Shown here: one piece after another, positions 2,914 to 62,918 of the stretch
Layout: each line of letters starts with the position of its first letter
Position numbering within the stretch: position 1 is the stretch's first letter
DNA from: a phage
Strand: one strand, 5' to 3'
Sequence record: PX104380.1
DNA: 64,000 nt
Translations under genes and position numbers: made by a program
The notes under the pieces: generated by a model
The model's database searches: none
What the model was told of the DNA's origin: nothing
Seen by the model: only the letters and a program-made list of their open reading frames with translations

Positions 2914-2930
2914 AATATTTTCCTCAGTAA

Positions 2931-2955
2931 GGGGCCGAAGCCCCTGTTTTATTTT
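2931..2955. other. intercistronic UUCG-tetraloop hairpin
   Basis: ggggccgaagcccc (minus sense GGGGCUUCGGCCCC); T-run follows on plus strand only. Confidence 0.4.
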
Positions 2956-3387: not shown

Positions 3388-3720
3388 TTATTTTACTACT
3401 TTCCAGTGCTGCATGTCAAGTTTACCGACTTTTTTCATCTTCTCAATTAAGCGTTCGGCACGTTGGCGAGCTGTAACATAATACCATTCACCTAATTCAT
3501 TTTGTTCAATTTTTCCAACGATTACTGTATTCAATTCATAAATCCAACCAGTAAAGAAATTATGAACTTGAATTGTAAAGGTGAAATCTGTTCCCATACC
3601 TTCTGTTGTTTCTACTTCAATAATATCACCTTCAACTGCCATTAAGAACCACATAGTTTCATCATATTTACCATTGAAGCATTTAGTTTTAACTGCAGCG
3701 TTCAGATTAATCGTTTTCAT
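3388..3720 (-). CDS. hypothetical protein, 110 aa
   Basis: ORF track; preceded by terminator plus early-type promoter. Confidence 0.5.
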   Translation of the reverse strand: MKTINLNAAVKTKCFNGKYDETMWFLMAVEGDIIEVETTEGMGTDFTFTIQVHNFFTGWIYELNTVIVGKIEQNELGEWYYVTARQRAERLIEKMKKVGKLDMQHWKVVK

Positions 3721-3742: not shown

Positions 3743-3777
3743 AGATAATACTATCACAAAGGAACCATACTGTAAAC
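3743..3777 (-). promoter_or_regulatory. early-type promoter
   Basis: GTTTAC...TAGTAT just downstream of terminator 3797-3825, upstream of ORF 3388-3720. Confidence 0.5.
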
Positions 3778-3796
3778 AACTTTGTGCAATCTTTGG

Positions 3797-3825
3797 AAAA
3801 TAAAAAAGGACTCCCGAAGGAGTCC
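3797..3825 (-). terminator. rho-independent terminator (UUCG-tetraloop hairpin + U-run)
   Basis: Minus sense GGACUCC-UUCG-GGAGUCC followed by UUUUUUAUUUU. Confidence 0.65.
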
Positions 3826-3830
3826 TTAAC

Positions 3831-4007
3831 TTATGCTTTCTGCTTACCAAAACGAGAAGCATCATCTCGAAGAACCGCACGTGCTCGGCGCATGATCTTC
3901 TCAACAGTTTGATTGATACGAGAGTTCGACCCACGCTTGTAGCCAGCGCGTTTAGAATCACCAACTTTCTTTTCAACTGCTTTCTTTGCTTTAGCTTGTT
4001 TTGCCAT
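3831..4007 (-). CDS. small lysine/arginine-rich basic protein, 58 aa
   Basis: ATG at 4007 with AAAAGAG upstream; MAKQAKAKKAVEKK...; track ORF has N-terminal extension. Confidence 0.45.
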   Translation of the reverse strand: MAKQAKAKKAVEKKVGDSKRAGYKRGSNSRINQTVEKIMRRARAVLRDDASRFGKQKA

Positions 4008-4251
4008 TATAAATTCTCTTTTAAATGAAAATGCAGGACTTATTGGCATTGCCTGCGAAAGCCCTCAAAGGGGTACTTAGGTTTTGAATATTTACCGACA
4101 GGATAACCATAAACCCGTCATCATTCACATTCAAGAGGTACACCATAAAACTGCCGGGGTCTTAAAACTATAATGATTCGCAAATCATTAATCAGACAGT
4201 TCGACGGCTCCTCGATTTTAGCTCACACTAAGGCAGTGAATCTCCAATAAA

Positions 4252-5348: not shown

Positions 5349-5585
5349 TTATTTACCTATTACAGTTTTAATATGAGTTGTTCCACGTTCTTTAAGGGTG
5401 GAAAGTAATTTTTGACATTTTTCTAAATCAGATTTCCAACTATATGGTCTATCAATACAAACCCAATTTGTCTTATAATACTGCTTCCATTTAGAGAAAA
5501 AATATTTCTTATACTCTACAGCAAATGAAATATTCTCATTAGAATAAGAACTAATTGCTGTAAGCTTTACCAAACGAAATTTCAT
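5349..5585 (-). CDS. hypothetical protein, 78 aa
   Basis: ORF track. Confidence 0.45.
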   Translation of the reverse strand: MKFRLVKLTAISSYSNENISFAVEYKKYFFSKWKQYYKTNWVCIDRPYSWKSDLEKCQKLLSTLKERGTTHIKTVIGK

Positions 5586-6737: not shown

Positions 6738-6763
6738 TTTGTTTTCCTCATTTGTTTGGTAGA

Positions 6764-6796
6764 GCTATAATATCACAACTCTACCGTAAAGTAAAC
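6764..6796 (-). promoter_or_regulatory. early-type promoter
   Basis: GTTTAC-N18-TATTAT upstream of ORF 6498-6737. Confidence 0.5.
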
Positions 6797-13531: not shown

Positions 13532-15795
13532 TACAATTTACACGCTGCACAATCGTCGGCTTTAGGAGTTTCTATTTCATAATCATCAGTACCAGAACCA
13601 TCACGGGTATTATGATAATAGAAATTTTTAATGCCATAATACCATCCGTATAACATGTCATCAATCATTATTGACATTGGAACCTTTCCTTTTGGAAAAA
13701 TCTGCGGGTCATAGTATGTATTCGCCGAAGCTGATTGACAAACCCATTTCAGCATAATAGCTACCTGCGTAAGATAAGGTTTATTACCTTTCTTAGCTAA
13801 TTTCCATGTATAATCATAGAGGTCTATGTTATGCTCAATATTGGGCACGACTTGATTAAAGGAGCCCTCTTTTGATTCTTTAACAGAGACTGGTCCACGT
13901 GGAGGCTCGATACCGTTTGTACTGTTAGAAACTTGGGAAGATGACTCACATGGCATAAGTGCTGATAATGTGCTATTACGGATGCCAAAGAGCTTAAGGT
14001 CTTCCCGCAGCGACGACCAGTCACAAACGTATTTTGGAGCTGCGATTTGGTCAATCTTTTTATTGTACCAGTCGATAGGTAATTCGCCTCGAGACCAACG
14101 AGTGTCTGAATAATATTCGCAAGGTCCTTTTTCTTTGGCGAGTTTAATGGATGCTTTAATGAGTCCATACTGTAATCTCTCAAATAGTTCATGTGTTAAA
14201 TCGTTAGCATCTTCATAAGAAGCAAAGTTACTTGCCAGCCAAGCTGCATAGTTAGTAACACCTACACCGAGGTTACGACGCTTTTTAGCTTTTTCTGCTT
14301 CAGGAACTGGATATCCTTGGTAATCCAAAAGATTATCAAGAGCACGAACTTGAACTTCTGCCAATTCATTAATTTTATCTTGGTCTTGCCAATCGAAGTT
14401 ATCCAGCACAAATGCAGATAACGTGCACAATCCAATTTCAGCATCGGGGCTATTCACATCATTTGTTGGAATAGCAATTTCACAGCACAAGTTACTCTGA
14501 CGAATAGGTGCCTTTTCACGAATAAACGGAGTATAGTTATTCGTATTATCAATGAACTGTACATAAATCCTTGCTGTTCCTGAGCGTTCAGTCATGAGCA
14601 ATTCAAATAGTTCACGAGCTTTAATACGCTTTTTACGAATATTAGGGTCTTTTTCTGCTGCTTCGTATAATTCACGGAAACGGTCTTGGTCTTTAAAATA
14701 AGAATAATAAAGCTCTCCACCCATTTCATGCGGACTGAACAAAGTAATGTAGTCGTTCTTTCCAAAACGTTCCATCATTAGGTCATTCAGCTGGACGCCA
14801 TAATCCATATGACGGATACGGTTTTCTTCTACACCTTTGTTATTTTTCAAAACGAGAAGATTTTCAACTTCCAAATGCCAAATAGGATAATAAGCAGTAG
14901 CAGCGCCGCCACGAATTCCACCCTGTGAGCATGATTTAACAGCAGTCTGAAAATGTTTCCAAAAAGGAATAACACCAGTATGACGCACTTCACCCATGCC
15001 AATCTTAGAACCTTCGGCACGAATCATACCAACGTTAATACCAATTCCAGCACGTTTGGAGATATATTCAACAATTGAAGCGGAAGCCTTATTGATAGAC
15101 TTTAATGAATCACCTGCCTCAATAACAACACATGAACTAAACTGCCGAGTCGGAGTACGGCAACCAGCCATAATAGGAGTTGGTAATGAAATCTGTCGAG
15201 TAGATACTGCTTCATAAAAACGAATAACATGTTTTAATCTATCAACAGGTTCATCTTGATGCAATGCCATTCCAATAGTCATAAATGCAAACTGAGGAGT
15301 TTCATAAATTTGACCAGTGGTTTTATCTTTAACTAAATATTTTTCTTTTAATTGCATCGCCCCGGAATAAGTAAATTCCATATCCCGCTCGTGCTTAATT
15401 TTTGATTCTAAAAATGTAATTTCTTCTGCTGAATATTTTGACAATAATTCAGGGTCATATTTACCTTCATTTACACAGTAAGAAATATGGTCAATAAATG
15501 AACGCGGTTCATACTGCCCATAAACATGCTTACGAAGAGCGAACATTAGACAACGTGCAGCTACATATTGATAATCAGGCTCTTCAACCGAAATAGAATT
15601 CGCAGCGGCCTTAATGACAATAGTCTGAATATCATCAGTTGTCATTCCATCACGGAGATAAGATTTAATATTTTCATATAATTCATAAGGATCTACTGAT
15701 GTTCCCTCAGCTGCCCAAGATAAAACTTTAATAATTTTTTGTGGGTCAAAGCTCTGAGAAACACCACTACTTTTGATAACATTAATTAATTGCAT
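13531..15795 (-). CDS. nrdA: ribonucleotide reductase large subunit, 754 aa
   Basis: 754 aa with N-terminal ATP-cone and class I RNR catalytic region; ATG verified. Confidence 0.95.
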   Translation of the reverse strand: MQLINVIKSSGVSQSFDPQKIIKVLSWAAEGTSVDPYELYENIKSYLRDGMTTDDIQTIVIKAAANSISVEEPDYQYVAARCLMFALRKHVYGQYEPRSFIDHISYCVNEGKYDPELLSKYSAEEITFLESKIKHERDMEFTYSGAMQLKEKYLVKDKTTGQIYETPQFAFMTIGMALHQDEPVDRLKHVIRFYEAVSTRQISLPTPIMAGCRTPTRQFSSCVVIEAGDSLKSINKASASIVEYISKRAGIGINVGMIRAEGSKIGMGEVRHTGVIPFWKHFQTAVKSCSQGGIRGGAATAYYPIWHLEVENLLVLKNNKGVEENRIRHMDYGVQLNDLMMERFGKNDYITLFSPHEMGGELYYSYFKDQDRFRELYEAAEKDPNIRKKRIKARELFELLMTERSGTARIYVQFIDNTNNYTPFIREKAPIRQSNLCCEIAIPTNDVNSPDAEIGLCTLSAFVLDNFDWQDQDKINELAEVQVRALDNLLDYQGYPVPEAEKAKKRRNLGVGVTNYAAWLASNFASYEDANDLTHELFERLQYGLIKASIKLAKEKGPCEYYSDTRWSRGELPIDWYNKKIDQIAAPKYVCDWSSLREDLKLFGIRNSTLSALMPCESSSQVSNSTNGIEPPRGPVSVKESKEGSFNQVVPNIEHNIDLYDYTWKLAKKGNKPYLTQVAIMLKWVCQSASANTYYDPQIFPKGKVPMSIMIDDMLYGWYYGIKNFYYHNTRDGSGTDDYEIETPKADDCAACKL

Positions 15796-19019: not shown

Positions 19020-19048
19020 TTTATTCTCCTCATGTAGTTGATAGGGTA

Positions 19049-19078
19049 ATAGTATCACACTACTACCCTACCGTAAAC
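19049..19078 (-). promoter_or_regulatory. early-type promoter
   Basis: GTTTAC-N18-TACTAT plus conserved leader CTATCAACTAC upstream of ORF 18777-19019. Confidence 0.55.
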
Positions 19079-19756: not shown

Positions 19757-19788
19757 GTATAGTACCATGGAAGGACAAGGATGTAAAC
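19757..19788 (-). promoter_or_regulatory. early-type promoter
   Basis: GTTTAC...GGTACTATAC after gene 32 terminator. Confidence 0.55.
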
Positions 19789-19811: not shown

Positions 19812-19839
19812 ATAAAAAAAGGGGACCCTAGAGGTCCCC
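19812..19839 (-). terminator. rho-independent terminator downstream of gene 32
   Basis: Minus sense GGGGACCUCUAGGGUCCCC followed by UUUUUUUAUUU. Confidence 0.65.
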
Positions 19840-23721: not shown

Positions 23722-26700
23722 ATGGCCGAGATTAAAAGAAAGTTCAGAGCAGAAGACGGTCTGGACGCAGGTGGTGATAAAATAATCAACGTAGCTTTAG
23801 CTGATCGTACCGTAGGAACTGACGGTGTTAACGTTGATTACTTAATTCAAGAAAACACAGTTCAGCAATATGATCCAACTCGTGGATATTTAAAAGATTT
23901 TGTAATCATTTATGATAACCGCTTTTGGGCTGCTATAAATGATATTCCAAAACCAGCAGGAGCTTTTAATAGCGTACGATGGAGAGCGTTACGTACTGAT
24001 GCTAACTGGATTACGGTTTCATCTGGTTCATATCAATTAAAATCTGGTGAAGCTATTTCGGTTAACACCGCAGCTGGTAATGATATTACATTTACTTTAC
24101 CATCTACCCCAATTGATGGTGATACTATCGTTCTCCAAGATATTGGAGGAAAACCAGGAGTTAACCAAGTTTTAATTGTAGCTCCGGTGCAAAGTATTGT
24201 AAACTTCAGAGGTCAACAAGTACGTTCAGTACTAATGACTCATCCAAAATCGCAGATAGTTTTAATTTTTAGTAATCGTCTGTGGCAAATGTATGTTGCT
24301 GATTATAGTAGAGAAGCTGTAGTTGTAACGCCTGCGAGTCTCTATCAGGCGCAATCAAACGATTTTATCGTACGTAGATTTACTTCTGCTTCAGCAATTA
24401 ATATTAAACTTCCTAGATTTGCTAATCATGGGGATATTATTAATTTTGTTGATTTAGATAAATTAAATCCGTTATATCATACTATCGTTACTACATACGA
24501 TGAAACGACTTCAGTACAAGAAGTTGGAACTCATTCCATTGAAGGCCGTACAACGATTGACGGTTTCTTAATGTTTGATGATAATGAGAAATTGTGGAGA
24601 TTATTTGACGGGGATAGTAAAGCACGTTTACGCATTATAATAACTAATTCTAATATTCGTCCAAACGAAGAAGTTATGGTATTTGGTGCGAATAACGGAA
24701 CAACTCAAACAATTGAGCTTCAGCTTCCAACTAATATTTCTGTTGGTGATACTGTTAAAATTTCCATGAATTACATGAGAAAAGGACAAACAGTTAAAAT
24801 CAAAGCTGCCGGTGAAGATAAAATTGCTTCTTCAGTTCAATTGCTGCAATTCCCAAAACGTTCAGAATATCCGCCTGAAACTAAATGGGTGACTGTCCAA
24901 GAATTAGTTTTTAACGGTGAAACTAATTATGTTCCAGTTTTACAGCTTGCTTATATAGAAGATTCTGATGGAAAATACTGGGTTGTACAGCAAAACGTTC
25001 CAACTGTAGAAAGAGTAGATTCTTTAAATGATTCTACTAGAGCAAGATTAGGCGTAATTGCTTTAGCTACACAGGCTCAAGCTAATGTCGATTTAGAAAA
25101 TTCTCCACAAAAAGAATTAGCAATTACTCCAGAAACATTAGCTAACCGTACTGCTACAGAAACTCGTAGAGGTATCGCAAGAATAGCAACTACTGCTCAA
25201 GTGAATCAGAACACCACATTCTCTTTTGCAGATGATATTATCATCACTCCTAAAAAGCTGAATGAAAGAACTGCTACAGAAACTCGTAGAGGCGTCGCTG
25301 AAATTGCTACACAGCAAGAAACTAATGCAGGAACCGATGATACTACAATCATCACTCCTAAAAAACTTCAAGCTCGCCAAGGTTCTGAATCATTATCTGG
25401 TATTGTAACTTTTGTATCTACTGCAGGTGCTACTCCAGCTTCTAGCCGTGAATTAAATGGTACGAATGTTTATAATAAAAACACTAATAACTTGGTTGTT
25501 TCGCCTAAAGCTTTGGATCAGTATAAAGCTACTCCAACGCAACAAGGTGCAGTAATTTTAGCAGTTGAAAGTGAAGTAATTGCTGGACAAAGCCAAGAAG
25601 GATGGGCAAATGCTGTTGTAACGCCAGAAACGTTACATAAAAAGACATCAACTGATGGAAGAATAGGATTAATTGAAATTGCTACGCAAAATGAAGTTAA
25701 TACAGGAACTGATTATACTCGTGCAGTCACTCCTAAAACTTTAAATGACCGTAGAGCAACTGAAAGTTTAAGTGGTATAGCTGAAATTGCTACACAAGTT
25801 GAATTCGACGCAGGCGTCGACGATACTCGTATCTCTACACCATTAAAAATTAAAACCAGATTTAATAGTACTGATCGTACTTCTGTTGTTGCTCTATCTG
25901 GATTAGTTGAATCAGGAACTCTCTGGGACCATTATACCCTTAATATTCTTGAAGCAAATGAGACGCAACGTGGTACACTTCGTGTAGCTACACAGGTCGA
26001 AGCTGCTGCAGGAAAATTAGATAATGTTTTAATAACTCCTAAAAAGCTTTTAGGTACTAAATCTACTGAAGCACAAGAAGGTGTTATTAAAGTTGCAACT
26101 CAGTCTGAAACTGTGACTGGAACGTCAGCAAATACTGCTGTATCTCCAAAAAATTTAAAATGGATTGTGCAGAGTGAACCTACCTGGGCAGCTACTACTG
26201 CAGTAAGAGGCTTTGTTAAAACTTCATCTGGTTCAATTACATTTGTCGGTAATGATACAGTCGGTTCTACCCAAGATTTAGAACTGTATGAGAAAAATAG
26301 TTATGCAGTATCACCATATGAATTAAACCGTGTATTAGCAAATTATTTGCCATTAAAAGCAAAAGCTGCAGATAGTAATTTATTGGATGGTCTAGATTCA
26401 TCTCAGTTCATTCGTAGGGATATTGCGCAGACGGTTAATGGTTCACTAACCTTAACTCAACAAACGAATCTGAGTGCCCCTCTTGTATCATCTAGTACTG
26501 CTACGTTTGGTGGTTCAGTTACAGCAAATAGTGTACTAACAATTTCTAATACTGGAACAGCAACTCGATTGATTTTTGAGAAAGGACCTCAAACTGGAAC
26601 AAACCCAGCCCAAACGATGACTGTTAGAGTGTGGGGAAATCAATTTAGTGGGGAATCAGATACAACACGTTCTACCGTATTTGAAGTTAGTGATGAAACA

Positions 26701-27591
26701 TCTAGTCATTTTTATTCTCAGCGCAATAAAGCCGGAAATATAACATTTAATATCAACGGTACAGTAACACCGATAAATGTTAATGCTTCAGGAACATTGA
26801 ATGCAAATGGCGTAGCAACATTTGGTAATTCAGTCACTGCAACCGGTGAAATTATTTCTCGAAGCGCAAATGCTTTCCGTGCTATTAACGGAAATTATGG
26901 TTTCATTGTTCGCAACGATGGATCAGTAACGAATTTTATGCTTACTGCATCGGGTGATCAGACTGGTGGATTCAACGGATTACGCCCATTAGCTATTAAT
27001 AATGCATCTGGTCAAGTAACGATTGGTGAAAGCTTAATCATCGCCAAAGGTGCTACTATAAATTCAGGTGGTTTAACTGTTAACTCGAGAATTCGTTCTC
27101 AGGGTACTAAAACCGCTGATTTATACACCCGTGCACCGACATCTGATACTGTAGGATTCTGGTCAATCGATATTAATGATTCAGCTACTTATAACCAATT
27201 CCCGGGTTATTTTAAAATGGTTGAAAAAACTAATGAAGTGACTGGACTTCCATATTTAGAACGTGGCGAAGAAGTTAAATCTCCTGGTACATTGACTCAG
27301 TTTGGTAACACACTTGATTCGCTTTACCAAGATTGGATTACTTATCCAACAACCCCAGAAGCGCGTACCACTCGTTGGACCCGCACATGGCAGAAAACCA
27401 AAAATTCCTGGTCAAGTTTTGTTCAGGTATTTGATGGAGGTAACCCTCCTCAACCGTCTGATATCGGTGCTTTACCATCTGATAATGCTACAATGGGTAA
27501 TCTTACTATTCGTGATTTCTTACGAATTGGTAATGTTCGCATTATTCCTGACCCAGTGAATAAAACTGTTAAATTTGAATGGGTTGAATAA
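23722..27591 (+). CDS. 34: long tail fibre proximal subunit gp34, 1289 aa
   Basis: 1289 aa, internal ~38-aa repeats (TATETRRGIA.IAT...TPKKL); late promoter upstream. Confidence 0.95.
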   Translation: MAEIKRKFRAEDGLDAGGDKIINVALADRTVGTDGVNVDYLIQENTVQQYDPTRGYLKDFVIIYDNRFWAAINDIPKPAGAFNSVRWRALRTDANWITVSSGSYQLKSGEAISVNTAAGNDITFTLPSTPIDGDTIVLQDIGGKPGVNQVLIVAPVQSIVNFRGQQVRSVLMTHPKSQIVLIFSNRLWQMYVADYSREAVVVTPASLYQAQSNDFIVRRFTSASAINIKLPRFANHGDIINFVDLDKLNPLYHTIVTTYDETTSVQEVGTHSIEGRTTIDGFLMFDDNEKLWRLFDGDSKARLRIIITNSNIRPNEEVMVFGANNGTTQTIELQLPTNISVGDTVKISMNYMRKGQTVKIKAAGEDKIASSVQLLQFPKRSEYPPETKWVTVQELVFNGETNYVPVLQLAYIEDSDGKYWVVQQNVPTVERVDSLNDSTRARLGVIALATQAQANVDLENSPQKELAITPETLANRTATETRRGIARIATTAQVNQNTTFSFADDIIITPKKLNERTATETRRGVAEIATQQETNAGTDDTTIITPKKLQARQGSESLSGIVTFVSTAGATPASSRELNGTNVYNKNTNNLVVSPKALDQYKATPTQQGAVILAVESEVIAGQSQEGWANAVVTPETLHKKTSTDGRIGLIEIATQNEVNTGTDYTRAVTPKTLNDRRATESLSGIAEIATQVEFDAGVDDTRISTPLKIKTRFNSTDRTSVVALSGLVESGTLWDHYTLNILEANETQRGTLRVATQVEAAAGKLDNVLITPKKLLGTKSTEAQEGVIKVATQSETVTGTSANTAVSPKNLKWIVQSEPTWAATTAVRGFVKTSSGSITFVGNDTVGSTQDLELYEKNSYAVSPYELNRVLANYLPLKAKAADSNLLDGLDSSQFIRRDIAQTVNGSLTLTQQTNLSAPLVSSSTATFGGSVTANSVLTISNTGTATRLIFEKGPQTGTNPAQTMTVRVWGNQFSGESDTTRSTVFEVSDETSSHFYSQRNKAGNITFNINGTVTPINVNASGTLNANGVATFGNSVTATGEIISRSANAFRAINGNYGFIVRNDGSVTNFMLTASGDQTGGFNGLRPLAINNASGQVTIGESLIIAKGATINSGGLTVNSRIRSQGTKTADLYTRAPTSDTVGFWSIDINDSATYNQFPGYFKMVEKTNEVTGLPYLERGEEVKSPGTLTQFGNTLDSLYQDWITYPTTPEARTTRWTRTWQKTKNSWSSFVQVFDGGNPPQPSDIGALPSDNATMGNLTIRDFLRIGNVRIIPDPVNKTVKFEWVE

Positions 27592-27599
27592 GAGGTATT

Positions 27600-28715
27600 A
27601 TGGAAAAATTTATGGCAAAGTTTGGACAAGGATATGTCCAAACGCCATTTTTATCGGAAAGCAATTCAGTAAGATACAAAATAAGTATAGCGGGTTCTTG
27701 CCCGCTTTCTACCGCAGGACCATACGTTAAATTTCAAGATAATCCTGTAGGAAGTCAAACATTTAGTGCAGGTCTTCATTTAAGAGTTTTTGACCCTTCC
27801 ACGGGAGCATTGGTTGATAGTAAGTCATATGTTTTTTCGACTTCAAATGATACTACATCAGCTGCTTTTGTTAGTTTCATGAATTCTTTTTCAAACAACA
27901 GACTTGTTGCCATATTAACTAGCGGAAAGGTTAATTTTCCTCCTGAAGTAGTATCTTGGTTAAGAACGGCAGGAACATCTGCTTTTCCATCTGATTCTTT
28001 ATTGTCAAGATTTGATGTATCATATGCTGCCTTTTACACTTCTTCTAAAAGAGCTATCGCACTAGAGCATGTTAAACTGAGTAACAGAAAAAGCACAGAT
28101 GACTATCAAACTATATTAGATGTAGTATTTGACAGTTTAGAAGATGTTGGAGCGACAGGATTTCCTAAAAGAACATATGAAAGCGTTGAGCAATTTATGT
28201 CAGCTGTTGGTGGAACTAATAACGAAATTGCACGTCTACCTACAGCATCTGCAATAAGTAAACTTTCTGACTATAATTTAATTCCTGGAGATGTTCTTTA
28301 TCTTAAAGCACAACTATATGCTGATGCTGATTTACTTGCTCTTGGAACTACAAATATATCTATCCGTTTTTATAATGCGTCGAATGGATATATTTCCTCG
28401 ACACAAGCTGAGTTTACTGGACAGGCTGGGTCTTGGGAATTAAAGGAAGATTATGTAGTTGTTCCTGAAAACGCTGTAGGATTTACGATATACGCACAGA
28501 GAACTGCACAAGCGGGTCAAGGCGGTATGAGAAATTTAAGCTTTTCTGAAGTGTCAAGAAATGGCGGCATTTCAAAACCTGCTGAGTTTGGCGTCAATGG
28601 TATTCGAGTTAATTATATCTGCGAATCTGCTTCACCTCCAGATATAATGGTACTTCCTACGCAAGCATCGTCTAAAACTGGTAAAGTGTTTGGACAAGAA
28701 TTTAGAGAAGTTTAA
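27600..28715 (+). CDS. 35: long tail fibre hinge protein gp35, 371 aa
   Basis: Immediately downstream of 34; length and sequence as recalled T4 gp35. Confidence 0.9.
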   Translation: MEKFMAKFGQGYVQTPFLSESNSVRYKISIAGSCPLSTAGPYVKFQDNPVGSQTFSAGLHLRVFDPSTGALVDSKSYVFSTSNDTTSAAFVSFMNSFSNNRLVAILTSGKVNFPPEVVSWLRTAGTSAFPSDSLLSRFDVSYAAFYTSSKRAIALEHVKLSNRKSTDDYQTILDVVFDSLEDVGATGFPKRTYESVEQFMSAVGGTNNEIARLPTASAISKLSDYNLIPGDVLYLKAQLYADADLLALGTTNISIRFYNASNGYISSTQAEFTGQAGSWELKEDYVVVPENAVGFTIYAQRTAQAGQGGMRNLSFSEVSRNGGISKPAEFGVNGIRVNYICESASPPDIMVLPTQASSKTGKVFGQEFREV

Positions 28716-28720
28716 ACTGA

Positions 28721-28747
28721 GGGAGCCTTCGGGTTCCCTTTTTCTTT
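28721..28747 (+). terminator. hairpin plus U-run between genes 35 and 36
   Basis: Plus sense GGGAGCC-UUCG-GGUUCCC followed by UUUUUCUUU, then late promoter. Confidence 0.5.
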
Positions 28748-28754
28748 ATAAATA
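28747..28754 (+). promoter_or_regulatory. late promoter (TATAAATA) for gene 36
   Basis: Exact TATAAATA ~25 nt upstream of gene 36 ATG, directly after hairpin. Confidence 0.7.
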
Positions 28755-28777
28755 CTATTAAAATAAAGGGGCATACA

Positions 28778-29434
28778 ATGGCTGATTTAAAAGTAGGTTC
28801 AACAATCGGAGGCTCTGTCATTTGGCATCAAGGAAATTTTCCATTGAATCCAGCCGGTGACGATGTACTCTATAAATCATTTAAAATATATTCAGAATAT
28901 AATAAACCACAAGCAACTGATAACGATTTCGTTTCTAAAGCTAATGGTGGTACTTATTTAAATAAAGTAATTTTTAATAAAGGAATGACTGTTCCTGGTG
29001 CTGGGTCAGGTGACAACGGTATTTTTGCCGGTCCTGGTGATAATGCCACATATGATACTACAAATATGGATATTGTTTCATGGTATGGTATCGGCTTTAA
29101 ATCATCACAAGGAGCAGCAGGTAGAACTGTAGTAATTAACACACGAAACGGAGATATTAGCTCAAAGGGTGTAATTGAAGCATCACAAATACGCGCAACT
29201 TCGCTATCACCAGTAAATAATTATGACCTTACGAGAAAAGATTATGTTGATGGAGCAATAAATATTGTTACAACAAATGCAAACTCTAGAGTATTACGCT
29301 CTGGAGACACTATGACAGGAAATTTAACTGCGCCAAACCTTTTTTCACAGAATCCTGCATCTCAACCCTCGCATGTTCCGCGATTTGACCAAATCGTAAT
29401 TAAGGATTCTGTTCAAGATTTCGGCTATTATTAA
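28778..29434 (+). CDS. 36: long tail fibre distal connector gp36, 218 aa
   Basis: Position, size; own late promoter upstream. Confidence 0.85.
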   Translation: MADLKVGSTIGGSVIWHQGNFPLNPAGDDVLYKSFKIYSEYNKPQATDNDFVSKANGGTYLNKVIFNKGMTVPGAGSGDNGIFAGPGDNATYDTTNMDIVSWYGIGFKSSQGAAGRTVVINTRNGDISSKGVIEASQIRATSLSPVNNYDLTRKDYVDGAINIVTTNANSRVLRSGDTMTGNLTAPNLFSQNPASQPSHVPRFDQIVIKDSVQDFGYY

Positions 29435-29442
29435 GAGGACTT

Positions 29443-33562
<4,120 letters not shown>

Positions 33563-33594
33563 TTTTTGAATAAATATCCTTAAAAGGAGGGTCT

Positions 33595-34251
33595 ATGGCA
33601 GCACCTAGAATATCATTTTCGCCCTCTGATATTCTATTTGGTGTTCTAGATCGCTTGTTCAAAGATAACGCTACCGGGAAAGTTCTTGCTTCCCGGGTAG
33701 CTGTCGTAATTCTTTTGTTTATGATGGCGATTGTTTGGTATAGGGGAGATAGTTTCTTTGAGTACTATAAGCAATCAAAGTATGAAACATACAGTGAAAT
33801 TATTGAAAAGGAAAGAAATGCACGCTTTGAATCTGTCGCCCTGGAACAACTCCAGATAGTTCACATATCATCTGAGGCAGACTTTAGTGCGGTGTATTCT
33901 TTCCGCCCTAAAAACTTAAACTATTTTGTCGATATTATAGCATATGAAGGAAAATTACCTTCAACAATAAGTGAAAAATCACTTGGAGGATATCCTGTTG
34001 ATAAAACTATGGATGAATATGCAGTTCATTTAAATGGACGTCATTATTATTCCAACTCAAAATTTGCTTTTTTACCAACTAAAAAGCCTACTCCCGAAAT
34101 AAACTACATATACAGTTGTCCATATTTTAATTTGGATAATATCTATGCTGGAACGATAACCATGTACTGGTATAGAAATGATCATATAAGTAATGACCGC
34201 CTTGAATCAATATGCGCCCAGGCGGCCAGAATATTAGGAAGGGCTAAATAA
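33595..34251 (+). CDS. t: holin t, 218 aa
   Basis: 218 aa; short cytoplasmic N-terminus, one TM segment (VAVVILLFMMAIVWY), large periplasmic domain; matches recalled T4 T. Confidence 0.9.
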   Translation: MAAPRISFSPSDILFGVLDRLFKDNATGKVLASRVAVVILLFMMAIVWYRGDSFFEYYKQSKYETYSEIIEKERNARFESVALEQLQIVHISSEADFSAVYSFRPKNLNYFVDIIAYEGKLPSTISEKSLGGYPVDKTMDEYAVHLNGRHYYSNSKFAFLPTKKPTPEINYIYSCPYFNLDNIYAGTITMYWYRNDHISNDRLESICAQAARILGRAK

Positions 34252-37017: not shown

Positions 37018-37050
37018 TGTATAGTACCACAGTATGCTTTGGTTGTAAAC
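37018..37050 (-). promoter_or_regulatory. early-type promoter upstream of motA
   Basis: GTTTAC-N18-TACTAT with A/T-rich upstream tract and conserved leader. Confidence 0.6.
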
Positions 37051-37070: not shown

Positions 37071-37100
37071 AAAATAAAAAGGGAGAGCCTCGGCTCTCCC
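37071..37100 (-). terminator. rho-independent terminator upstream of motA promoter
   Basis: Minus sense GGGAGAGCCGAGGCUCUCCC followed by UUUUUAUUUU. Confidence 0.65.
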
Positions 37101-37105
37101 TAAAA

Positions 37106-40175: not shown

Positions 40176-40208
40176 AAAACAAAAGGGCCGAAGCCCTTAT
40201 TTTATTTG
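40176..40208. terminator. bidirectional terminator-like hairpin between denB and upstream ORF
   Basis: GGGCCGAAGCCC hairpin (UUCG loop on minus sense) flanked by A-run on one side and T-run on the other. Confidence 0.45.
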
Positions 40209-43795: not shown

Positions 43796-43825
43796 ATTAT
43801 ACCACATCCTTGTGGTAAAGTAAAC
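43796..43825 (-). promoter_or_regulatory. early-type promoter
   Basis: GTTTAC-N18-TATAAT upstream of ORF 43567-43770. Confidence 0.55.
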
Positions 43826-45642
43826 TACTGGCTCATCCATTCTTTACGAAGGTCAGCATTATCTCCCATGAGCATTTCAAAAAGCTCATTCCAGTTCTCA
43901 GGAAGTTTAACAACATCATATACCGGATTTTGAATCATCTCACGATATTCAGATTTTTCCAAAGAGCCAAGTCCCTTAATATAACGGATGCTATGTTTAG
44001 GTAGAGCATCTTTAGCACTCTCATATTCAGCGACTGTATAAAACCATTCTTGTTTTTTACCGACCTGAGCGATGATTACAGGAGTTTTGACAAAGCGAAT
44101 TCTTCCTTGTTCAAACAGTTCTGGCCAATTACTAAAAAATCCGAGCAGAGAAGGATAAATGCTTCCTAGACCATCATGGTCAGCATCGGTCATAATAGCA
44201 ATATTATGATAATTCAAGTTTTCAGCTTTTTCACCAAGAACTAATCCAGTGATTGCGCAAATATCAAACAGTTCTTTGTTTTTAAGCATATCAGCATATG
44301 ACATACCCCAACTGTTGAGAACTTTACCGCGCAATGGATAGCCACCATGAAGTTCTTTATCACGAACATCGATTAAATAACCAATTGCAGAATCACCCTC
44401 AGTCAAGAAAAGAGTAGTGTCAGCATCTTTACCACAAAGATTCGCTTTGATATGTTTATGAACCTTAGCTTTAGAAGCCTTTTTAGCTGCTTTAGTTTCT
44501 GCTGCTTTTTCTGCCGCCAATTTACGAGCCAAGGCAGCTTCAATAATCGGCATTAAAATTGCTTCATTATTTAGAATAGCGCGTGAAATCTTTTTAGCAT
44601 CAAGTTGAATATGACTACGAATTTCGCCAAATGGAGAAGTCAAACGCTCTTTAGTTTGAGAATCAAATCGCATGTTTTTCATATCACGGACAAACATAAC
44701 GATAGTCAAACATTCTTTAACGCGTGCTTTAGTCACATCAATTTTGAACTTACGTTTGATTTGTGGAATAAGGTCTTCACAAATATCATCCATAACACAG
44801 TCAATGTGATGGCCACCATTCTTAGTGTGAATGTTATTCACATAAGTTAATTGACGAAAACCATCCGGTGAACGACCAACCGCAATAGAGCAATTTTCTT
44901 GTTCTTGAACGATAGCATGCTCATCATATTGGCGTGCATATTTCTTAAAATTGCCCTGAACCTTTTTACCATTAAAGGTAAATTGAATATCAGGATAAAC
45001 TACTGCAAGTGTCTGGAGACGATCTAGTGTAATGTCAAGATAAACTTGGGACAGCTCATTAGTTTCAAATGACATAAAATCAGGAATGAAAGTAACACGA
45101 GTTCCTTTCCATTTTCCAGGAATAGTTTCCCATGATTTATTTTCCATGCCATTTGAACAACGAACTACAATATTATTTTGACCATCACCAGTTTCACCGA
45201 CAAACATCACAGAAAAAATGTTTGTCAAACTAGAACCAACACCATTCATACCGCCAGTGACGCGTTCTTTATCATCACCGAAGTTACCACCTGCTTTTGG
45301 AATAGTCCAGGCAGCAACAGGACCAGGAATTTCTTCACCGGTAGGTGTTTTGACCATCGCTTGTGGAATACCGCGACCGTTATCTTCAACTGTTACCTGA
45401 TTATTTTTAATGGTAACATTAATTTTATTCGCGAATTTAAACTTAGTACGAATACCTTCATCTACTGAGTTATCGATAATTTCATCAATAAGCTTAACAA
45501 GACCAGGTACATACTGAACACTTTCCCATTTACCAAACAGAAAGCGCTCATGCATTTCATTAGCAGAAGAGCCAATATACATGCCGCTACGCTTTTTGAT
45601 ATGTTCAATATCGCTCAGAATTTTAATTTCATTCTTAATCAT
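43825..45642 (-). CDS. 39: DNA topoisomerase II large subunit gp39 (GyrB-like), contiguous 605 aa
   Basis: GHKL ATPase N-terminus (IDEIIDNSVDE, GRGIP), TOPRIM region; single uninterrupted ORF. Confidence 0.9.
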   Translation of the reverse strand: MIKNEIKILSDIEHIKKRSGMYIGSSANEMHERFLFGKWESVQYVPGLVKLIDEIIDNSVDEGIRTKFKFANKINVTIKNNQVTVEDNGRGIPQAMVKTPTGEEIPGPVAAWTIPKAGGNFGDDKERVTGGMNGVGSSLTNIFSVMFVGETGDGQNNIVVRCSNGMENKSWETIPGKWKGTRVTFIPDFMSFETNELSQVYLDITLDRLQTLAVVYPDIQFTFNGKKVQGNFKKYARQYDEHAIVQEQENCSIAVGRSPDGFRQLTYVNNIHTKNGGHHIDCVMDDICEDLIPQIKRKFKIDVTKARVKECLTIVMFVRDMKNMRFDSQTKERLTSPFGEIRSHIQLDAKKISRAILNNEAILMPIIEAALARKLAAEKAAETKAAKKASKAKVHKHIKANLCGKDADTTLFLTEGDSAIGYLIDVRDKELHGGYPLRGKVLNSWGMSYADMLKNKELFDICAITGLVLGEKAENLNYHNIAIMTDADHDGLGSIYPSLLGFFSNWPELFEQGRIRFVKTPVIIAQVGKKQEWFYTVAEYESAKDALPKHSIRYIKGLGSLEKSEYREMIQNPVYDVVKLPENWNELFEMLMGDNADLRKEWMSQ

Positions 45643-45696
45643 TACTTATCCTCGTTTGGTTTCGGGAATATTATACTCCAATAATCATAAAGCTAA

Positions 45697-45714
45697 AGGC
45701 CCGAAGGCCTTTTA
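45697..45714. other. UUCG-tetraloop hairpin overlapping stop of lipoprotein ORF
   Basis: aaaggcccgaaggccttt; minus sense GGCC-UUCG-GGCC. Confidence 0.4.
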
Positions 45715-48027: not shown

Positions 48028-48071
48028 AGTTATCTCTCACTTGTTAAAAAGATTTTATACTCCACGGGACC

Positions 48072-48101
48072 AGAGTATAATGGTCCCAAGAGTTTGTAAA
48101 C
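48072..48101 (-). promoter_or_regulatory. possible early-type promoter
   Basis: GTTTAC present; -10 less clear (TTATAC/TACTCT); flanking inverted repeat GGGACCA/TGGTCCC. Confidence 0.35.
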
Positions 48102-53733: not shown

Positions 53734-54353
53734 TCAACTACCTCAATATCATAAACTTTAAATGTTCCAAACGAATCGTGTAATTTTTCTTTTGAAATAG
53801 AAGTTATTTTATACTTTCCAATTGGAATCATCCATTCTTGTTCACGCACGATCATCATTAAGTTATCAGTACGCTCTGAATCTAATCCATCAGTATCTTC
53901 ATATGTATACTTAAACTCAGTATTAGGAGAAGAAAGTATAATATCGCTGATATGGTCAGAGTAATTAAAAGCTTTATCAGTTTTTAAGCGGAATATTATT
54001 TCAGTGAAATATTCAGCATAAGAAAAAGAACACGCTGTGTGTAAACTAGTAGTAAATGAATCTACCCTATTCGTTGAAAACACATCTCCAACCTGTAAAT
54101 TTTCTATTATTTCTTTTGTTGTTTTTGATATACCACGATATAACTGATAAGGCGATTTAGTTAAATGCTTTTTAATGATTTTATTCAACTGTCTGTGAAG
54201 AGCTTCATTCTTTTTGGCTTCCATACATTGCCAAAGAATTGATTGTTCAAAATCAGTAAACTTTTCACAAACCTTTTTATACATATCATATTGAAAATCA
54301 ACGCTTTCAGCTTTTATAGATAACTGTTCAACATCTGCAAGATTAATAATCAT
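53730..54353 (-). CDS. modB: ADP-ribosyltransferase ModB, 207 aa
   Basis: 207 aa, upstream of modA, shared architecture. Confidence 0.8.
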   Translation of the reverse strand: MIINLADVEQLSIKAESVDFQYDMYKKVCEKFTDFEQSILWQCMEAKKNEALHRQLNKIIKKHLTKSPYQLYRGISKTTKEIIENLQVGDVFSTNRVDSFTTSLHTACSFSYAEYFTEIIFRLKTDKAFNYSDHISDIILSSPNTEFKYTYEDTDGLDSERTDNLMMIVREQEWMIPIGKYKITSISKEKLHDSFGTFKVYDIEVVE

Positions 54354-54376
54354 GATAGCCTCCGTATACTTCAGAA

Positions 54377-54409
54377 GCTATCATATCATTGTTAGAAAGG
54401 AAAGTAAAC
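54377..54409 (-). promoter_or_regulatory. early-type promoter
   Basis: GTTTAC-N18-TATGAT upstream of modB. Confidence 0.5.
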
Positions 54410-55911: not shown

Positions 55912-56249
55912 TCACAAGATGTAGATGAACAACCAGAATCACAAGAACTTCCACATGAATCGCCCGTCCATACATGAACAGGAACATTAGTGTCATATGA
56001 ATCAGAACTAGACTGTGTATTCTGCGTATTAGATGATGTAGTAGGTGTTGACCAGCGCCAAGGATTTTTATAATATTCTTGGGCTTCTTCATAAGTCATA
56101 GTAACTGCTTCTACTGTTCCATCTCCCATATAAACATATTCAACTACAGTTAAAGGAAGGTAGTCATTTGAAATAGGAACTACACCTTCTCCGGGAGTTG
56201 TAGAGAAAAAATCCGTAAAGAAACTTTTAAACCAATTAAAGATAAACAT
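55908..56249 (-). CDS. hypothetical protein with Ser/Thr-rich linker and Cys-rich C-terminus, 113 aa
   Basis: C-terminus [18 protein letters not shown] after [15 protein letters not shown] low-complexity stretch. Confidence 0.45.
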
Positions 56250-56461
56250 TACAAAAAGCCTCTCTTAAATTCGATTCTTTGAAATCCACCCCAGTCAGTG
56301 TATCGCATTTCAGCATTGAACTCGACTGAACCATCTGCATGCATCATGAATGAATGCGTGACGATATCACAATCCCAGCTTTTCATACCCCATTTATCAG
56401 AGATAGCTTTATCAAGAACCTTCTGGAGGTCTTCATTTGGTTTAATCCAACGATTTAACAT
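56249..56461 (-). CDS. hypothetical protein, 70 aa
   Basis: ORF track. Confidence 0.45.
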   Translation of the reverse strand: MLNRWIKPNEDLQKVLDKAISDKWGMKSWDCDIVTHSFMMHADGSVEFNAEMRYTDWGGFQRIEFKRGFL

Positions 56462-56485: not shown

Positions 56486-56517
56486 CTATTATACCATACT
56501 CATTTTGGAAAGTAAAC
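56486..56517 (-). promoter_or_regulatory. early-type promoter
   Basis: GTTTAC-N18-TATAAT directly after soc terminator. Confidence 0.55.
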
Positions 56518-56526
56518 CAGTAAAAT

Positions 56527-56551
56527 GAAAAAAGGACTCCCGAAGGAGTCC
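56527..56551 (-). terminator. rho-independent terminator downstream of soc
   Basis: Same 18-nt hairpin GGACUCCUUCGGGAGUCC as at 3808-3825, followed by UUUUUUCAUUUUA. Confidence 0.65.
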
Positions 56552-56559
56552 TTGAATTA

Positions 56560-56796
56560 TTAACCACCTATTTGTGTAGGCGTAAACATTGCAGCATTCT
56601 TAGTTTTCCAAGTTGCTGCATCAGAAACTACAGTAGAATATGCCGCCTTTTCAGAAGGAAAGGTCTGATAATGAGAATCTGCAATACGATGCTCGTTAGA
56701 ATAAATTTCAAACGGAACAGAAACTTCCATACCTTTAACTTCTTTGCCTTCACCTGCTGGATGAGTAAAGGTCTTGATGTTAACGAAACCACCCAT
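56560..56796 (-). CDS. soc: Soc small outer capsid protein, 78 aa
   Basis: ...VNIKTF...HYQTFPSEKAAYSTV... matches recalled T4 Soc; TATAAATA late promoter upstream. Confidence 0.85.
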   Translation of the reverse strand: MGGFVNIKTFTHPAGEGKEVKGMEVSVPFEIYSNEHRIADSHYQTFPSEKAAYSTVVSDAATWKTKNAAMFTPTQIGG

Positions 56797-56827: not shown

Positions 56828-56835
56828 TATTTATA
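56828..56835 (-). promoter_or_regulatory. late promoter (TATAAATA) for soc
   Basis: Minus-sense TATAAATA ~30 nt upstream of soc ATG, overlapping the 3' end of the HNH ORF. Confidence 0.65.
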
Positions 56836-61078: not shown

Positions 61079-61104
61079 AACAATCTCCTCATTTAACCAA
61101 CAAG

Positions 61105-61137
61105 ACTACTATACCATAGTCTTGTCAGCTTGTAAAC
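61105..61137 (-). promoter_or_regulatory. early-type promoter
   Basis: GTTTAC-N18-TATAGT upstream of dmd, overlapping gene 41 stop. Confidence 0.5.
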
Positions 61138-62573: not shown

Positions 62574-62918
62574 TTAAAAGAATTTAAATTTTTTCTTTGA
62601 CCTTTTATTAAATGCATCTTGTAGTTGCATTGTAATACATTTTTCTACATGAGGAGCTAACTCAGCTTTTCTTTCTTGGTCAAGAACAGCAAAGTCCATT
62701 ACGACTTTTCCATCAACCCAATCTAATTTTGTCACATACACAATGTGTGTAGAACCATCTTCTAGTTTAATGACAATCTCCTGGATAACATTTTCCATGG
62801 CAGATTTAATTATCTTAAGAGATTCATTAAAAAGACGTTCTTTTCTTTCTTCTTCCCCCTCCGAAGAGGGGGATTCATCGATAATTTCTAGATCTAAATC
62901 TAAATCATCTTTATTCAT
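62574..62918 (-). CDS. 40: gp40 head-vertex assembly protein, ~114 aa
   Basis: Track start 62936 is GTG; ATG at 62918 overlaps uvsX 3' end; assignment by position between uvsX and 41. Confidence 0.5.
   Translation of the reverse strand: MNKDDLDLDLEIIDESPSSEGEEERKERLFNESLKIIKSAMENVIQEIVIKLEDGSTHIVYVTKLDWVDGKVVMDFAVLDQERKAELAPHVEKCITMQLQDAFNKRSKKKFKFF

Follow-up and report, generated by a model that had tools for sequence, protein, structure and literature searches.

The 64,000-nt stretch of phage DNA analyzed here (sequence record PX104380.1; hereafter the window) carries an identical hairpin with a UUCG loop at two distant loci. This raises the questions of what such hairpins do in this genome and whether the identity of the two copies reflects the movement of a terminator-promoter unit, as a first-pass annotation had proposed. 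The window belongs to a T4-like phage of the genus Tequatrovirus: approximately 4 kb around the site at 3808 match genomes of this genus, among them BW-1 and e11/2, at 97-98% identity. The gene order of T4 is retained. The minus strand carries 30.x, rIII, 31 and cd, the plus strand the tail-fibre genes 34-38, and the minus strand again motA...rIIB, rIIA, 39...dda, modA/B, soc, 56, 61, 41, 40 and uvsX. Genes lie on the minus strand from 1 to 23700, on the plus strand from 23722 to 34251 and on the minus strand again from 34252 to 64000. The phage is nevertheless not T4 itself: unlike in T4, gene 39 (43825-45642) is a single ORF of 605 aa devoid of a split gene 60, a bypass segment or mobA, and gene 38 (32786-33562) encodes a long adhesin of the T2/T6 type, of approximately 258-268 aa.

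As had been claimed, the 18-nt hairpin GGACTCCTTCGGGAGTCC is found at 3808-3825 and at 56534-56551. The window contains no further copy, the two are on the minus strand, and 100 shuffles of the window yielded no match. The identity in fact covers 26 nt, AAGGACTCCTTCGGGAGTCCTTTTTT, which comprise the hairpin and its U-run (3802-3827 and 56528-56553); past these come a one-base indel and then ATTTT in both. Both 26-nt copies are also present in T4. Copy 1 (3806-3827, minus strand) forms a 9-bp stem with a C-G closing pair, AAGGACUCC-UUCG-GGAGUCCUU, with a predicted energy of -14.5 kcal/mol, and it folds as predicted in its 81-nt context (z = -2.8). It directly follows the ORF of gene 30.9 (3831-4049, minus strand). 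The U-run on its 3′ side, UUUUAUUUUC (3796-3805), is a match in a scan for terminator-like sequences, and the position is labelled as a terminator in GenBank KJ668714, a predicted annotation. Past the stem comes UUUUAUUUU, and a sequence resembling an early-type sigma-70 promoter, TTTACA-N17-TAGTAT with a TG (3748-3776, minus strand), begins 30 nt downstream of the stem. It lies upstream of gene 30.8 (3388-3720, minus strand), which is preceded by a Shine-Dalgarno sequence and is the first gene downstream. On the other side of gene 30.9, the approximately 200 nt that separate it from rIII (4050-4251, minus strand) contain a small hairpin (4061-4074) and no sense-strand ORF of at least 50 aa.

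Copy 2 (56532-56553, minus strand) has the same stem and loop, AAGGACUCC-UUCG-GGAGUCCUU, and also folds as predicted in its 81-nt context (z = -4.5). It is located at the 3′ end of soc (56560-56796, minus strand), a late gene that codes for the small outer capsid protein. Next come the U-run UUUUCAUUUU (56522-56531, minus strand) and, 16 nt after the stem, an early promoter-like TTTACT-N17-TATAAT with a TG (56488-56516, minus strand), 100% identical to T4. A Shine-Dalgarno sequence and an ATG then lead into a homologue of mrh.2 (56249-56461, minus strand), the first gene downstream. In GenBank MH243439 a terminator and then a promoter are annotated at this position, again by prediction. A U-run and then an early promoter had been noted after both copies, and this was borne out, the promoter-like sequences conforming to TTTAC(A/T)-N17-TA(G/T)(T/A)AT preceded by TG. 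The placement just past a stop codon, at 3 nt for 30.9 and 6 nt for soc, is that of intrinsic terminators at both sites.

Upstream of soc, 37 nt before its ATG, we found the motif TATAAATA (56828-56835, minus strand), which we take to be a late-promoter motif by the established T4 consensus. Since this motif and copy 2 bracket soc, the gene would form a short unit of its own. Macdonald, Kutter and Mosig reportedly described the soc mRNA in 1984 as a short monocistronic late transcript ending at the soc hairpin. Our search of the literature on transcript 3′ ends and Term-seq retrieved nothing specific to T4.

Hairpins of this kind are not limited to the two identical copies. The first-pass annotation had listed seven, all of which were found, at 2930, 3806, 28719, 32757, 40183, 45695 and 56532, and an eighth that was absent from its list is located at 62854-62873 on the minus strand. 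All eight combine a UUCG loop and a closing C-G pair with a stem of Watson-Crick and G.U pairs, and their predicted energies range from -8.8 to -15.9 kcal/mol. Given the strands on which the genes lie, the UUCG is mRNA-sense in every case, the eighth hairpin included. Seven of the eight are intergenic, the exception being 62854, within gene 40. A U-run follows the stem only at 3806, 28719, 40183 and 56532. The shape of an intrinsic terminator, a GC-rich stem-loop with a U-rich tract, is absent at 2930, 32757, 45695 and 62854. Intrinsic termination requires a hairpin plus a U-tract. As four of the eight hairpins are devoid of a U-run and one is in a coding sequence, the label of terminator cannot fit the whole set. 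A scan of the whole window against Rfam yielded no family that reached its gathering threshold.

Two hairpins in addition to the identical copies have a U-run. The one after gene 35 (28719-28740, plus strand), GAGGGAGCC-UUCG-GGUUCCCUU, includes one G.U pair, which is available in the sense RNA alone; the predicted energy is -14.6 kcal/mol in the sense orientation versus -8.8 kcal/mol in the antisense orientation. The other, AAGGGC-UUCG-GCCCUU followed by UUGUUUU, is located upstream of denB (40183-40198, minus strand). At 32757-32776 (plus strand), UGAGGGGC-UUCG-GCCCCUUG sits between the stop codon of gene 37 and the Shine-Dalgarno sequence of gene 38 and has no U-run. The hairpin that follows 39.1, AAAGGCC-UUCG-GGCCUUU (45695-45712, minus strand), similarly has none and adjoins a MotA box, AGCTTTA (approximately 45688-45694), with TATAAT 12 nt further on (45670-45675). 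These two elements constitute P39, a middle promoter that Table 1 of PMC2988021 places at position 5349 of T4.

The hairpin between 30.7 and 30.6, AGGGGC-UUCG-GCCCCU (2930-2945, minus strand), is directly 5′ of the Shine-Dalgarno sequence of 30.6. It lacks a U-run on the sense side and has a T-run, GTTTTATTTT, on the antisense side, which gives it the shape of a terminator for antisense transcription. The loop at this site is UUCA in T4 and UUCG in the window and in e11/2. The hairpin in gene 40, UCCCCCUC-UUCG-GAGGGGGA (62854-62873), with 8 bp and an energy of -15.9 kcal/mol, is made of the codons for SPSSEGE. The start codon of gene 40 overlaps the 3′ end of uvsX, and the hairpin begins 37 nt past this codon; an identical hairpin is found in T4 (NC_000866, 22329-22348). 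An internal attenuator and an RNA-stability element are both possibilities for its role. The set also contains a second exact pair, AGGGGCUUCGGCCCCU, at 2930-2945 (minus strand) and 32759-32774 (plus strand), both mRNA-sense despite lying on opposite DNA strands. Identical short hairpins can therefore recur without common flanks.

We compared these numbers with chance expectation. CTTCGG occurs 29 times in the window, versus 13.5 times in dinucleotide shuffles, and within stems of at least 6 bp it occurs 9 times, versus 0.12 in the shuffles. Thirteen of the CTTCGG hexamers are sense and 16 antisense. Such stems enclose 8 of the 13 and 1 of the 16, respectively (Fisher p = 0.003), and the sole antisense stem is weak, with three G.U pairs and an energy of -2.5 kcal/mol. 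Antisense hairpins, whose equal frequency the annotation had named as an argument against its own claim, are thus clearly less frequent in the window, with 8 sense versus 1 weak antisense. All genes in the first 50,000 nt of T4 lie on the minus strand, and there 9 of 10 sense CTTCGG, including the gene-60 bypass hairpin, are enclosed in a stem of 6 bp or longer, as opposed to 0 of 11 antisense ones. A scan of IMG/VR on both strands retrieved the 18-mer in 105 stretches, corresponding to at least 85 distinct contexts. The downstream side alone was T-rich in 72 and the upstream side alone A-rich in 4, so that the UUCG faced the U-run rather than the opposite direction by 72:4 for the 18-mer, and by 62:1 for a control in which the two arms were swapped (GGAGTCCTTCGGGACTCC). 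Across approximately 150 independent viral contexts, the bias is thus about 20:1 or more, which argues for an element that operates at the level of RNA. The loop energies differ by only about 0.9 kcal/mol between the sense and antisense orientations in nearest-neighbour calculations (ViennaRNA), and the orientation argument therefore rests on the experimentally known extra stability of UUCG.

Base pairing was also assessed in relatives, whose loci were retrieved by way of their Soc and gp30.8 proteins, without reference to the hairpin. The stems at the soc site were GGACUCC, GGAAUCC, GGAAUCC/GGGUUCC, GGAACC and GGGAACC, and those at the 30.9 site GGACUCC or, in RB69-like contigs, GGGACUC, so that in the latter the two sites differ in stem. 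GGAAUCC and GGACUCC differ by one compensatory base pair. Neither the UUCG nor the closing C-G pair varied at any of the soc and 30.9 sites retrieved. A loop-centred alignment of 18 distinct sequences had 98% of its cells paired, and changes on both sides were found in 6 of the 9 pairs. None of 500 shuffles attained the observed values, and pairing fell to 69% or less when the register was slid.

These data bear on a reading in which the palindromes act as DNA, as a protein-binding site or a cruciform or recombination signal, the RNA hairpin being incidental. The stems are indeed perfect DNA palindromes, and nature provides two cases of an inverted loop, with CGAA in the gene-sense strand, in the T4-like contigs L199 at the soc site (2755-2772 region; IMGVR_UViG_2974573174_000001) and L204 at the 30.9 site (2706796299_000001). 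The stems and flanks are as in their relatives, and each case is a small inversion between the arms of the palindrome. The loop is thus able to flip in DNA, and the sense orientation of UUCG is maintained by selection. A DNA signal would be expected to have no preference for loop orientation, yet the ratios are 72:4 and 62:1 in viral contigs and 8:0-1 in the window. In addition, the G.U pairs at 28719 and in relative L137 are A.C mismatches on the opposite strand, and the compensatory changes preserve pairing rather than sequence. We therefore regard an action as DNA as extremely improbable.

The combination of hairpin and promoter at the two identical copies is reminiscent of the so-called PeSLs (promoter-early stem-loops), composite cassettes of a stem-loop and an early promoter that have been proposed to mediate modular shuffling in T4-like phages (Arbiol et al. 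2010, PMC2839356; Comeau et al. 2014, PMC4122927). In T4 and PST, the stem-loop is just 5′ of TTTACW-N17-TAYWAT (PMC4122927). For RB49, termination has been demonstrated with a stem-loop, and recombination of cassettes into mini-circles has been demonstrated as well. Both cassettes of the window have the PeSL layout of a stem-loop, an early promoter, a Shine-Dalgarno sequence and an ATG in an intergenic region, the promoter at 3748 being one base off the form given for T4 and PST in PMC4122927. The conservation over approximately 100 bp between differing ORFs that characterizes PeSLs is found for the soc-mrh.2 cassette, whose approximately 130 nt run from the soc stop codon into the start of the mrh.2 coding sequence, taking in its first codons, and match T4 at 93-100%, whereas the bodies of soc and mrh.2 are only about 40-80% identical. 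The Soc proteins encoded at 56560-56796 in the window and at 15331-15573 in T4 are diverged alleles, and the body of mrh.2 has diverged as well. From the sequence, soc looks like a case of allele replacement bounded by the terminator-promoter cassette.

In contrast, the likeness of whole cassettes to each other that is typical of PeSLs was not found for the two window copies, which share 26 nt and not the promoter half. We anchored the 20 early-type promoters of the window on their -10 hexamers and compared them in all 190 pairs, for a mean identity of 41%. The promoter halves of the two cassettes are 34% identical, ranking 134th of 190. The distance from hairpin to promoter also differs by 14 nt between the cassettes (30 versus 16 nt), and no local alignment of the flanks of the two copies rose above background. 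The promoter comparison rules out a duplication of the whole terminator-promoter cassette.

Two other cassettes on the minus strand, at 19821-19839 with a promoter ending at 19759 and at 37080-37101 with a promoter ending at 37021, have non-UUCG loops, UCUAG and CGAG. Their stems differ, and their T-runs and promoter halves are 63% alike, with ...TTTTTCA(C/T)AAAACGGTTTACA...TGGTACTATACAACTATC in common. Judged by sequence, these two are better candidates for repeated PeSL copies than the pair at 3808 and 56534. The minus strand also has five long palindromes, at 19040-19072, 6758-6785, 61095-61130, 54351-54385 and 48065-48088, with stems of 10-15 bp and energies of -13 to -19 kcal/mol. Two of them (19040-19072 and 6758-6785) contain the -10 region and the start site of early-type promoters (GTGATACTAT and GTGATATTAT), and those at 61095, 54351 and 48065 have -10-like TATA motifs within or near their loops. 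All five may be leader hairpins or stem-loops of the RB49 PeSL type.

We looked for the two identical copies in other genomes. A third copy is listed for a few Tequatrovirus records (IME340, Kelasse). In PEi20-like, PG7-like and other T4-like contigs, where protein identity is approximately 61% (gp61), 67% (gp56) and 54-78% (Soc), soc is followed by the 18-mer core. The core also follows the C terminus of gp30.9 (...AAAGCATAA) in several other T4-like contigs, including PG7. Orthologous hairpins are thus present at both sites in Karamvirus (PG7-like) and other T4-like contigs, and at the soc site also in Kanagawavirus (PEi20). Because both sites are orthologously occupied across T4-like genera, neither copy is a recent insertion.

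The orthologous occupancy weighs on the possibility that the identical copies stem from a mobile or duplicating PeSL cassette, which would have passed from one locus to the other by recombination or as an excised and reintegrated mini-circle. Several observations are in line with such movement. For T4-like phages, gene shuffling and mini-circle formation by PeSLs have been proposed (PMC2839356, PMC4122927), and the soc-mrh.2 cassette is a conserved island amid diverged genes. In other genera the hairpin links soc to other downstream modules, and in relative L009 it joins a different upstream gene to the downstream module of relative L010. Furthermore, the 26-nt identity was unmatched in 100 shuffles of the window. 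However, the promoter halves are less alike than the average pair and differently spaced from their hairpins, the flanks have no homology, and neither terminal repeats nor target duplications are present. Both sites are orthologously occupied in Karamvirus and other T4-like contigs, the soc site in Kanagawavirus as well, and the stems of the two sites differ from each other in RB69-like contigs. We consequently give this possibility only a slight chance of being correct. A MITE-like or other transposable element is ruled out by the lack of homology between the flanks, by terminal repeats that are just the stem, and by orthologous occupancy across genera. The proposal of a mobile terminator-promoter unit is therefore partly supported: the published PeSL concept and the soc-mrh.2 island of approximately 130 nt speak for it, and the exact duplication fails as proof of mobility, given an identity confined to 26 nt, promoters 34% identical, no flank homology, orthologous sites and a control hairpin that is at least as common.

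We next consider why the copies are identical. The 18-mer is not uniquely widespread, a notion ruled out by the arm-swapped 18-mer, which was found in at least 120 viral stretches versus 105 for the query. A third control, GGAUUCC-UUCG-GGAAUCC, had just 7 matches, indicating that the frequencies of such hairpins are lineage-driven. The template AAGGNNNCC-UUCG-GGNNNCCUUUUUU, scanned as AAGGNNNCC-TTCG-GGNNNCCTTTTTT, occurs in at least 120 viral stretches, from which only rough proportions can be taken; it accommodates many inner triplets, and among the matches listed ACU/AGU accounts for 2 of 107, which is no excess. The GGAAUCC variant one base pair away, the AGGGGCUUCGGCCCCU pair, the variety of the template and the arm-swapped control together indicate that identity can arise from a small design space.

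Structure alone could nevertheless be insufficient, and the identity could be kept by concerted evolution, through short-patch gene conversion or template switching between the copies, or by a phage or host factor that recognizes GGACUCC-UUCG-GGAGUCC. We aligned seven soc-site loci from different genera and found the 26-mer to be the sole invariant block, with a mean column identity of 57%. The Soc protein of T4 is 47% identical to that of the window, yet the same 26-mer accompanies both, and in general it accompanies soc alleles of 47-100% amino acid identity, with variant stems in some nearer relatives. Its invariance beside Soc alleles that are only 47-78% identical exceeds what a constraint on structure alone would lead one to expect. 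The core also recurs within genomes of several T4-like genera, at 2-3 non-homologous intergenic sites each, and the base pair that flanks it is genus-specific: both sites have A..U in T4, the window and PEi20, and all three have G..C in PG7-like genomes. This minor new hint could stem from concerted evolution or from selection particular to a genus. However, with just two or three lineages involved, and with the outermost pair under the weakest constraint, the parallel change could be a coincidence. Compensatory variant stems occur at both sites, showing that the exact sequence is not required, and the two sites differ from each other in RB69-like genomes. Moreover, viral contigs contain the arm-swapped control at least as often as the query, and the ACU/AGU triplets are in no excess among the matches listed. 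Concerted evolution or recognition by a factor thus appears unlikely to us, though less so than the mobile cassette. A broader proposition, in which GGACUCC-UUCG-GGAGUCC is not just one among many interchangeable terminator stems, seems similarly doubtful. The hairpin would then be a sequence-specific element with multiple copies in T4-like phages, the same at several non-homologous intergenic sites and in genera whose neighbouring proteins share only 47-78% identity. Such an element could be maintained by either gene conversion or factor recognition. If it existed, it would also be a short homology anchor for the exchange of gene modules. Should the genus-specific conservation of the multiple copies turn out to be concerted evolution, it would provide a handle on how short regulatory palindromes are homogenized and how they anchor module exchange in T4-like genomes.

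Our preferred reading, which we hold with considerable confidence, is that the UUCG hairpins are RNA-level elements of T4-type mRNAs, that the identical copies are terminators of PeSL-type cassettes and that purifying selection accounts for their identity. In such mRNAs, the elements would be GC-rich stems topped by C(UUCG)G, a tetraloop of exceptional stability. Copies 1 and 2, with their 9-bp stem and U-run, would be Rho-independent terminators that end the 30.9 and soc transcripts, and the strong early promoters just downstream would restart transcription into 30.8 and mrh.2, making each terminator and promoter a composite PeSL-type cassette that insulates adjacent transcription units. In the soc cassette, the T-tract of the terminator, at approximately -51 to -46 of the downstream promoter and thus at the position of an UP element, may serve as part of that element. 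The hairpins at 28719 and 40183 would be terminators of the same kind. Those at 2930, 32757, 45695 and 62854 are more likely to be barriers to 3′ exonucleases, folding nuclei or modulators of translation-initiation regions. The identity of the copies would reflect strong purifying selection on an old, slowly evolving type of hairpin with a small design space; homogenization between copies may happen on occasion, and recent transposition is not indicated.

Hairpins of the C(UUCG)G class are described as blocking reverse transcriptase. Their stability is unusual, and the intergenic regions of T4 contain many of them (Tuerk et al. 1988, PNAS 85:1364, as summarized in PMC4371310 and PMC8948821), which supports the description of UUCG hairpins as a known feature of T4 intercistronic regions. 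Those of the window share with the T4 hairpins the loop, the closing C-G pair, the sense orientation and the mostly intergenic location, and T4 has the same sequences at the same loci. The window differs from T4 by its T2-type gp38, its fused gene 39 and its soc allele, and in nothing essential as regards the hairpins. The occurrence of sense UUCG hairpins, with an identical pair among them, is thus confirmed. The elements are orthologous to those of T4 and their classes have already been described, UUCG hairpins in 1988 and PeSLs in 2010 and 2014. The main value of the survey is that of a positive control, in that the classic UUCG hairpins and the cassette architecture of T4 were recovered from sequence alone. 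It also adds a clean statistic for orientation and covariation support for the two T4 terminators, together with a caution: because the design space is small, the fact that two short hairpins are exactly identical argues only weakly for mobility.

By sequence, the two copies also resemble the Rho-independent terminators of E. coli: a short loop tops a GC-rich stem, a U-run of at least 4+4 adjoins the stem on its 3′ side, and the whole lies a few nt past a stop codon. Four of the eight UUCG hairpins differ from those terminators in having no U-run. Early promoters of T4 consist of UP, -35, TGn and -10 elements (PMC2988021). The proximity of a terminator and the next promoter, within tens of nt, is shared with the promoter-coupled terminators described by Fletcher et al. 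in a 2026 preprint (10.64898/2026.08.19.745784), in which the DNA of the stem doubles as a -35 element and the T-tract as a spacer. A dual use of the T-tract is plausible here as well. Unlike in those terminators, the T-tract is located upstream of the -35, in the UP-element region, and in other genera it merges with a MotA box. The latter arrangement was observed in relatives L005, L007-L011, L016, L183, L187 and L194, which include PEi20 and PG7. In these T4-like contigs, the U-run of the hairpin runs into a MotA-box-like TGCTTT(T/C)(T/A)A, so that T-tract and box overlap, and a TATAAT-like hexamer follows approximately 12 nt past the box, yielding a fusion of terminator and middle promoter of the PmSL type.
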